This document shows, in pieces, positions 34,681 to 35,748 of a stretch of DNA of 64,000 nt. The first letter of the stretch is position 1. Each line of letters starts with the position of its first letter. Made by a program: the position numbers and the translations under genes. The notes beneath the pieces are model-generated. The model was not told the DNA's origin. It searched no databases and was given only the letters and a program-made list of their open reading frames with translations. Source of the stretch: Klebsiella phage phi1_146015; the sequence record PP889466.1; one strand, 5' to 3'.

Positions 34681-35748
34681 TCAGAGTCCCGTGAAAGCTA
34701 CAACGATTTGATAGTGGTCATCGAAGAATTCCCCTTGTCGTTGCACGACCTCATGTAAGGGCATCCAGAACGCGTCTAACGCATCGTCAGAACCGCCCAT
34801 AATACGGGGCAGACTTCCATCATTGTTAGGTTCTAACTTGATGTACTGCGCCACAGTCGGTTTTGAGAAGTATACGGAACGTTTCGGATGATCGAACAGC
34901 ATCGAATTACGGATTGAACCACGGATAACCTTTTCAGGAACTTTGATCCGCACCTCTTCGAGCAGTTCACGGATCGCACAATCCAGGAACGTTTCATTTG
35001 CGTTTTTGTGTCCGCCAGGAAGGGCTAACGCGTTTTTACCTGGTGCGAACTTACGACGAATTACCAGCAGGTGATTGTTGCACACAACCACACTATCACC
35101 CGTGCAACAGTTTAGCGCGTCTGGGTATGGGTAGTTTTTGAATTTCTCCAATTCACTCTCCCATTTCTCGTATTCGTAGAATAAACGCCAGAACGTGTCT
35201 TCCATCATCCATTTGTCGATATAATCAACGGTTGCTTGAGGAACAAAGCGCAACAGTTTCTTATCCCATCCGTTTTTGTGGTTGAAGATAATCGGACGCA
35301 GATCGGTTGCTGATAGATCCTTGCCGTCAACCTGAACAGGATCAACAGGTACGTGTGTCCATCCGAACGCTTTAAGCCAGTATGAACCCGCATCTTTTTC
35401 GTAACCGTAGATAGCGATTTTGTCGCCTTTGGTTTCCCTGATAGCAGTACGAACAGAGGTTTTCCATTTCTCTTCGTTGTAAAGATAATCTGGAATATGT
35501 TCAAACTGAACACGAACAACATCTTCGATCGGGAAGTTAGCGTTTAACCATGAGAAGATCATCGTTTGACGCTCACGCGCTGTCAGAGGGTTTAAAACGT
35601 TAGGGTAAGCATATGCTGAACCCAGCAGGATGTAAACGATCTTTGCTTCTTCGAGTGCTTTACGCACCATTGCTGCATGACCATTATGGAAGGGTTGGAA
35701 TCTGCCAATTACGACAGCTTTATCAAATTGTTTCATAACGTGCTCCAC
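34681..35748 (-). CDS. bifunctional NMN adenylyltransferase / Nudix hydrolase (NatV-like)
   Basis: 355 aa. The N-terminal GRFQPFHNGH is the cytidylyltransferase HxGH motif. The C-terminal GGHKNANETFLDCAIRELLEEV is a Nudix box. Confidence 0.8.
   Translation of the reverse strand: MEHVMKQFDKAVVIGRFQPFHNGHAAMVRKALEEAKIVYILLGSAYAYPNVLNPLTARERQTMIFSWLNANFPIEDVVRVQFEHIPDYLYNEEKWKTSVRTAIRETKGDKIAIYGYEKDAGSYWLKAFGWTHVPVDPVQVDGKDLSATDLRPIIFNHKNGWDKKLLRFVPQATVDYIDKWMMEDTFWRLFYEYEKWESELEKFKNYPYPDALNCCTGDSVVVCNNHLLVIRRKFAPGKNALALPGGHKNANETFLDCAIRELLEEVRIKVPEKVIRGSIRNSMLFDHPKRSVYFSKPTVAQYIKLEPNNDGSLPRIMGGSDDALDAFWMPLHEVVQRQGEFFDDHYQIVVAFTGL

Follow-up and report, generated by a model that had tools for sequence, protein, structure and literature searches.

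The question raised by this locus is whether a phage-encoded enzyme that would complete NAD+ from nicotinamide mononucleotide (NMN) can stand without the enzyme that would make the NMN. Its gene, natV, encodes an NMN adenylyltransferase fused to a Nudix hydrolase and resembles one half of the NadV + NatV pair of phage KVP40, but the other half, NadV, is missing from the window, by which we mean the whole 64-kb stretch of DNA that was analysed. The heading of the first-pass annotation hinted accordingly at an orphan NatV, a hint that we trace to an effect of the window edge. We are highly confident that natV is the adenylyltransferase (Nmnat) half of a standard two-gene NAD+ reconstitution pathway (NARP2) and not an orphan.

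The lineage of the phage provides the frame for this argument. The natV region is 94–96% identical to many complete RB43-like T4-type genomes and the ends of the window are ~99% identical to them; by this nucleotide identity, the window is that of an RB43-like Pseudotevenvirus (Straboviridae), whose relatives infect Cronobacter, Enterobacter, Klebsiella, Citrobacter and E. coli. Orthologues in RB43, RB16, GAP161, leB, UPEC03, Dev_CS701 and others share 86–99% protein identity, position and flanking genes with the natV of the window and show allelic differences only, and the closest NatV protein in INPHARED is that of phage leB (99.1%). Neither the 351-aa nor the 355-aa form of the protein has an identical entry on record, and an exact 37-mer searched against IMG/VR picked out two contigs, both from relatives at 93–96% identity. 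The gene is already annotated in UPEC03, leB, GAP161, RB16 and others, under names such as [quoted passage not shown] and “bifunctional NMN adenylyltransferase/NUDIX hydrolase”. Family, lineage, annotation and the NARP2 pathway are thus all established, and natV is already known.

The list of open reading frames gives natV as a 355-aa frame with a GTG start (34681..35748, minus strand), and the gene had been described from it as an HxGH adenylyltransferase and a Nudix domain in one 355-aa protein. The fusion is borne out by both Pfam and NCBIfam; the length is not. The sequence upstream of natV reads ...AACGTGGAGCACGTTATGAAA... and contains a Shine–Dalgarno GGAG (35743..35746, minus strand, read from the sequence) 6 nt upstream of an ATG at 35736. 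The GTG start of the longer form overlaps this GGAG, and the relatives UPEC03 and HK6 both carry an annotated natV coding sequence of 1056 nt that starts with ATG and encodes 351 aa. For these two reasons the GTG start was dropped in favour of the ATG; the true product is therefore 351 aa, and the coding sequence, including the stop codon, spans 34681..35736 on the minus strand.

Profile and structure comparisons converge on a single assignment for this product, a NadM-type NMN adenylyltransferase fused to an ADP-ribose-type Nudix hydrolase, with both enzyme activities predicted from sequence. Pfam CTP_transf_like (PF01467, the cytidylyltransferase-like HIGH domain) matches above its gathering cut-off at 9e-09 and Pfam NUDIX at 1.6e-14 (54.5 bits against a gathering cut-off of 21.1). 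The N-terminal half (~aa 6–195; 35152..35721, minus strand) is further matched by NMNAT-specific NCBIfam models, namely PRK13793 (7e-26), archaeal NMNAT TIGR01527 (5.7e-13) and the NMNAT model of NadR (4e-11), and by the NMNAT halves of the solved structures 2qjo and 2qjt, whose Nudix halves in turn match the C-terminal domain (~aa 215–336; 34729..35094, minus strand). Over its full length the protein aligns with Synechocystis slr0787 (PDB 2qjo; 5e-55, query 7–353 against residues 6–338) and with Francisella NadM (PDB 2qjt; 1.4e-45), and these two full-length matches settle the predicted fold; PHROG 395 matches at 9e-98. The NCBIfam model for the bifunctional NMN adenylyltransferase/Nudix hydrolase (PRK05379 family) likewise matches end to end at 1.8e-73, with a best score of 247.8 bits against the 397-bit cut-off of that sub-model. 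Equivalog cut-offs across the sub-models range from 354 to 449 bits and none is reached, so that NatV represents a divergent phage clade of the NadM–Nudix family; as judged by these profile scores, its membership holds at the level of the family and not of any one bacterial sub-model.

The motifs expected of both domains are in place. Alignment to KVP40 NatV, slr0787 and Francisella NadM locates the HxGH motif at H17-N-G-H20 within GRFQPFHNGH (aa 11–20; motif at 35677..35688, minus strand) and the second nucleotidyltransferase motif, SxTxxR (ISSTxxR-like), at S142-A-T-D-L-R147 (35296..35313, minus strand). The Nudix box, read from the translation as G242-x5-E248-x7-R256-E257-L-x-E260-E261-x-R-I264 (34945..35013, minus strand) and compared with the consensus Gx5Ex7REUxEExGU, is intact, with R at the usual G position as in slr0787.

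Signals on either side of natV suggest how it may be expressed. A consensus scan places a strong sigma-70-like (T4 early-type) promoter candidate between the preceding SPFH gene and natV (TTGACT-16-TATAAT, agreeing with the consensus at 11 of 12 positions; 35859..35886, minus strand), and a terminator-like hairpin with a 13-bp stem and six GC pairs beginning 12 nt past the natV stop (34640..34669, minus strand), the latter called by consensus scan only. Sigma-70-like sites in the region number nine against 5.4 ± 2.2 in shuffled sequence, each a match to consensus only. Because a promoter-like site precedes the gene and a hairpin follows it, an independent early transcription unit is suggested, and natV thus appears to be self-contained, with its own putative promoter and terminator and a presumed early timing. 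The SPFH/Band-7 membrane protein directly upstream (308 aa; 35913–36839, minus strand) and a DUF5856 protein (127 aa; 36901–37284, minus strand; labelled “starvation-inducible transcriptional regulator” in RefSeq) each have an 11/12 sigma-70-like promoter site before their genes as well.

What such a protein may do for the phage is best understood from work on KVP40 (Osterman et al., bioRxiv 10.1101/2024.02.11.579819), in which the Nampt enzyme NadV joins nicotinamide to PRPP to yield NMN, the Nmnat enzyme NatV adds AMP from ATP to NMN to yield NAD+, and the pair, termed NARP2, raises the NAD+ level of infected cells and overcomes systems that deplete NAD+, Thoeris among them; AntiDefenseFinder-type resources mention NARP2. 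By analogy, we suggest that an Nampt-type NadV encoded ~72 kb from natV would make NMN from nicotinamide and PRPP, and that the N-terminal NadM-type domain of NatV would convert NMN and ATP to NAD+ and pyrophosphate. The two enzymes together could then rebuild NAD+ during infection and might neutralise NAD+-depleting defences. The C-terminal Nudix domain would split ADP-ribose and, probably, NAD(H) to give AMP and ribose-5-phosphate or NMN. Through cleavage of ADP-ribose it may also feed ribose-5-phosphate to the host PRPP synthetase, and because ribose-5-phosphate could reach that enzyme, both products of an NADase would be recycled. Iyer et al. (PMC7824862) further ascribe to the Nudix domains fused to phage NMNATs a capacity to regulate NAD+ by hydrolysing it to NMN. 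We consider it very probable that natV is the NatV orthologue in a KVP40-type NARP2 of an RB43-like Pseudotevenvirus, with its enzyme activities, its timing, the presence of nadV and the anti-defence role all extrapolated from relatives and homologues.

The alternative that survives best concerns not the pathway but its purpose. NadV and NatV might serve chiefly to provide more NAD+ for phage-directed metabolism, and not for counter-defence, a reading that we regard as a possible but clearly less likely account. On this reading the demands served could be, for example, those of nucleotide-synthesis redox reactions or of NAD+-consuming ADP-ribosyltransferases, with natV forming part of the set of nucleotide-metabolism genes of large T4-type phages. 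Consistent with such a role, natV is sited among genes of nucleotide metabolism (tk, nrd genes, dCMP deaminase), and NARP2, because it starts from PRPP, raised NAD+ in defence-free cells too (bioRxiv 10.1101/2024.02.11.579819). The window also encodes a macro-domain protein and a second Nudix hydrolase, of the NudE type, which suggests that the phage invests more widely in ADP-ribose metabolism. Against a purely metabolic purpose, NARP2 restored plating in the presence of Thoeris and of other defences that deplete NAD+ (same preprint). The two roles are compatible and not mutually exclusive, and we retain the reconstitution of NAD+ with a possible counter-defence benefit as the preferred reading.

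The two additional ADP-ribose-related genes deserve a brief description. The macro-domain protein (166 aa; 39384–39884, minus strand; Pfam Macro 3.2e-06) lies ~3.6 kb from natV and is annotated as “O-acetyl-ADP-ribose deacetylase” in UPEC03; it is a second ADP-ribose-handling gene of the early region, whose product may remove ADP-ribosylation or process ADPR derivatives. The stand-alone Nudix hydrolase (137 aa; 54584–54997, minus strand; Pfam NUDIX 6.8e-16), named NudE in UPEC03, brings the number of Nudix enzymes in the window to two, the natV product included.

The pathway proposed here requires NadV, and the observation that no nicotinamide phosphoribosyltransferase is present in the 64-kb window was confirmed. 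A six-frame tblastn search of the window with phage NadV and human NAMPT as probes returned nothing better than a chance-level match at 63122–63412 (E 0.07), and no NAPRTase-family protein was identified among its 13 open reading frames of at least 300 aa, ten of which were scanned against Pfam together and three more separately; the natV frame was scanned too. The human probe had been confirmed as NAMPT against the PDB before use, and the NAMPT probe does match close relatives, including Dev_CS701, IME-CF2 and R2_1. Among the larger frames of the window, one of 507 aa is a DNA ligase, and one of 582 aa, which has no Pfam match, is annotated as a baseplate hub subunit in UPEC03. A 465-aa PIN–PhoH fusion (43197–44594, minus strand; PIN_4 4.7e-17, PhoH 1.3e-34) is close to NadV in its expected size and might be mistaken for it.

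The relatives indicate where the gene should be sought. In eight complete genomes nadV lies 70.7–73.7 kb downstream of natV, and in Dev_CS701 it encodes a 477-aa protein with NAMPT_N and NAPRTase domains, sited among early genes: the srd-like and RNA-ligase genes come before it, and the DNA methylase genes and the gene for the anaerobic ribonucleotide reductase come after it. The window is collinear with 42.4–106.5 kb of HMGUkp1, in which natV occupies 77.1–78.1 kb and nadV 149.9–151.3 kb; by this collinearity, nadV is expected to lie ~43 kb to the right of where the window stops. Because nadV is ~72 kb from natV in the relatives, we interpret its absence as an effect of the window edge. The earlier suggestion had been that NadV lies elsewhere or that the phage uses the host enzyme. 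The first part agrees with the relatives: in searches of all phage records, the 60 best matches for natV and the 60 best for nadV have 59 records in common, with two exceptions, Lw1, which falls just outside the best 60, and a 61-kb partial record. The second part is not needed. Nicotinamide salvage in E. coli K-12-type hosts runs through PncA/PncB and not through NadV, which is consistent with a phage that encodes NadV itself and does not depend on the host for this step. That nadV is encoded in this phage's own genome is a very strong inference from its relatives.

The same records bear on whether this phage could nonetheless be a true orphan, having lost nadV unlike all of its sequenced relatives, with NatV acting alone. 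We consider this very improbable. The window without NadV would fit it, but the expected position of nadV is outside that window, and comparable relatives keep both genes, both in the best-60 lists and by identity band: the Pseudotevenvirus cluster comprises 61 natV records (at least 80% identity) and 62 nadV records (at least 90%), the extra one being the 61-kb partial record. Record counts for natV and nadV run in parallel across host genera (Klebsiella 114/115, Aeromonas 55/56, Enterobacter 20/20, Cronobacter 18/18, Escherichia 9/9). Beyond the lineage, 94% of phages with a KVP40-type Nampt also have an Nmnat (bioRxiv 10.1101/2024.02.11.579819), and, in the passage of PMC7139368 that cites Lee et al. 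2017, all of the NatV-encoding phages known in 2017 (50 of 50) carry nadV.

Two functions could be imagined for a lone NatV. It might re-adenylate host NMN, from NAD-dependent DNA ligase or from NadR/PnuC salvage, or serve mainly as an ADP-ribose pyrophosphatase, for which we see scant probability. Equally improbable in our estimation is that its Nudix half mainly destroys ADP-ribose or ADP-ribose-derived immune signals, to which the near invariance of this half between natV alleles, against a mosaic NMNAT half, would lend some appeal. Both presuppose the loss of nadV, and the retention of NadV in the relatives leads us back to NatV as one half of NARP2.

The remaining alternative, that the N-terminal domain belongs to another kind of HIGH-family nucleotidyltransferase (FAD synthetase, phosphopantetheine adenylyltransferase or cytidylyltransferase) joined to a generic Nudix domain and unrelated to NAD+, draws on the generic cytidylyltransferase-like name of the Pfam family, on weak sub-threshold matches to FAD_syn, HIGH_NTase1 and citrate lyase ligase and on the label “cytidyltransferase” in many RefSeq records of natV, but is effectively refuted already on profile comparison and retains a negligible probability, since those sub-threshold matches are confined to ~30 residues around HxGH, the NMNAT-specific models and solved NadM–Nudix structures span the whole protein with E-values 50–70 orders better, and the KVP40 orthologue is biochemically an NMNAT (bioRxiv 10.1101/2024.02.11.579819). 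CoaD (1.2e-5), RibF_rel (7.8e-4) and FAD_syn (0.052, under the cut-off) each cover just ~30–80 residues around HxGH. An FAD synthetase, CoaD or citrate lyase ligase identity was rejected on these scores against 1.8e-73 for the NMNAT/Nudix family, and because the FAD-type and CoaD profiles score so much worse, the NMNAT identity proposed in the first-pass annotation stands against the cytidylyltransferase or FAD synthetase type that it had named as its own refutation.

Although natV is conserved in position, its sequence varies in a patterned way. In otherwise near-identical phages we find two groups of natV alleles, with ~98% (the group of the window) and ~89–91% (e.g. HK6) protein identity to the NatV of the window. 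In the comparison of natV alleles (window 34681–35736, minus strand, against L006:2501–3556), 32 of the 38 amino-acid differences between HK6 and the window fall in aa 33–189, within the NMNAT domain, and the Nudix domain hardly varies. NadV itself is 97.5–100% identical across phages that bear either natV allele group. This distribution looks like a recombination patch in the NMNAT domain, perhaps linked to the neighbouring homing endonuclease. That gene, of the HNH/NUMOD type (261 aa; 33224–34009, minus strand), lies between the nrdC.11-like gene and natV and is a mobile insertion: it is also present in UPEC03 and Banach, its slot in HK6 holds three small open reading frames, and in most other relatives the corresponding stretch of the query is left uncovered in the alignment.

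The conservation of the NadV protein follows the lineages, at 97.5–100% in relatives of the Cronobacter/Enterobacter/Klebsiella type (45 records of at least 95%) and 90.8–93.1% in those of the RB43/RB16/Miller type. In Cronobacter phage leE (KX443552.1 / NC_048646.1) the nadV match at 152634–154053 falls in two pieces and two coding sequences are annotated; this split may reflect a frameshift or faulty sequencing, and would be the sole hint of a disrupted NadV among close relatives.

Several other genes of the window carry recognisable domains. The nrdC.11-type protein (340 aa; 32217–33239, minus strand) has an RlaP domain (RNA-repair pathway, pol-beta-like nucleotidyltransferase), and the “thioredoxin” label that it bears in UPEC03 and Dev_CS701 is probably an annotation error passed on from record to record. 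A C-5 cytosine DNA methyltransferase (29780–30688, minus strand; Pfam 3.1e-93) is adjoined in UPEC03 by a homing endonuclease gene. The early region also encodes a 748-aa protein whose N-terminus carries a von Willebrand factor A domain (25139–27385, minus strand) and, among its early genes, a 383-aa protein with a SPASM iron–sulfur domain (48609–49760, minus strand), likely a radical-SAM-type enzyme.

Beyond correct annotation, the natV finding matters little in itself. It does make the phage a probable carrier of NARP2, which would be useful in predicting the escape of RB43-like phages from Thoeris, DSR, SIR2-HerA and similar NAD+-depleting defences, and several RB43-like phages are candidates for phage therapy against Klebsiella, Enterobacter and Cronobacter. 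A practical lesson concerns the distance between the two genes: because natV and nadV are ~72 kb apart in RB43-like phages, and not within 12 kb of each other in KVP40, a 64-kb window is insufficient for calling an orphan.

Comparison with known systems places natV closest to its KVP40 counterpart, and its proposed identity as the NatV half of the KVP40-type pair is upheld. A tblastn search with the NatV of the window finds matches in 467 phage records, KVP40 natV among them. KVP40 NatV (KVP40.0162) is 41% identical to the natV product over the whole length by direct alignment (39.9% by tblastn), shares its two-domain architecture at 341 aa against 351 aa, and retains an identical HxGH motif, SATDFR for SATDLR and invariant catalytic REx2EE residues in the Nudix box. 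In KVP40, natV lies between nrdC.11, which encodes an RlaP-type nucleotidyltransferase, and tk; in the window it lies between the nrdC.11-type gene (32217..33239) and, by collinearity with UPEC03, rI and tk. As this slot is common to both phages, natV is a positional orthologue, and in both lineages nadV is distant, outside the 12 kb that flank natV in KVP40. The differences are those of divergence (59% of residues) and of host, Vibrio in contrast to Enterobacteriaceae; as far as alignment and gene order can tell, nothing in the anatomy of natV departs from KVP40 NatV. The NMN adenylyltransferase and ADP-ribose pyrophosphatase activities attributed to it are accordingly putative, transferred from KVP40 NatV and from the names given to the homologues of solved structure. 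Among these, slr0787 shows GRFQPFHLGH, SSTAIR and the same arginine in the Nudix box, and Francisella tularensis NadM (2qjt/2r5w), which aligns collinearly over its full length, shows GRFQPFHKGH and NATEFR; both, however, are cellular housekeeping enzymes, whereas natV is an auxiliary gene of a phage. The NadR-like enzyme of NARP3 (Bas30_86), which works with PnuC, is likewise a phage-encoded NMN adenylyltransferase that rebuilds NAD+, and the NMNAT model of NadR matches the NatV of the window, if weakly. In contrast to NatV, the NARP3 enzyme carries a ribosylnicotinamide kinase domain in place of the Nudix domain, has a transporter as its partner and takes nicotinamide riboside as its starting point.
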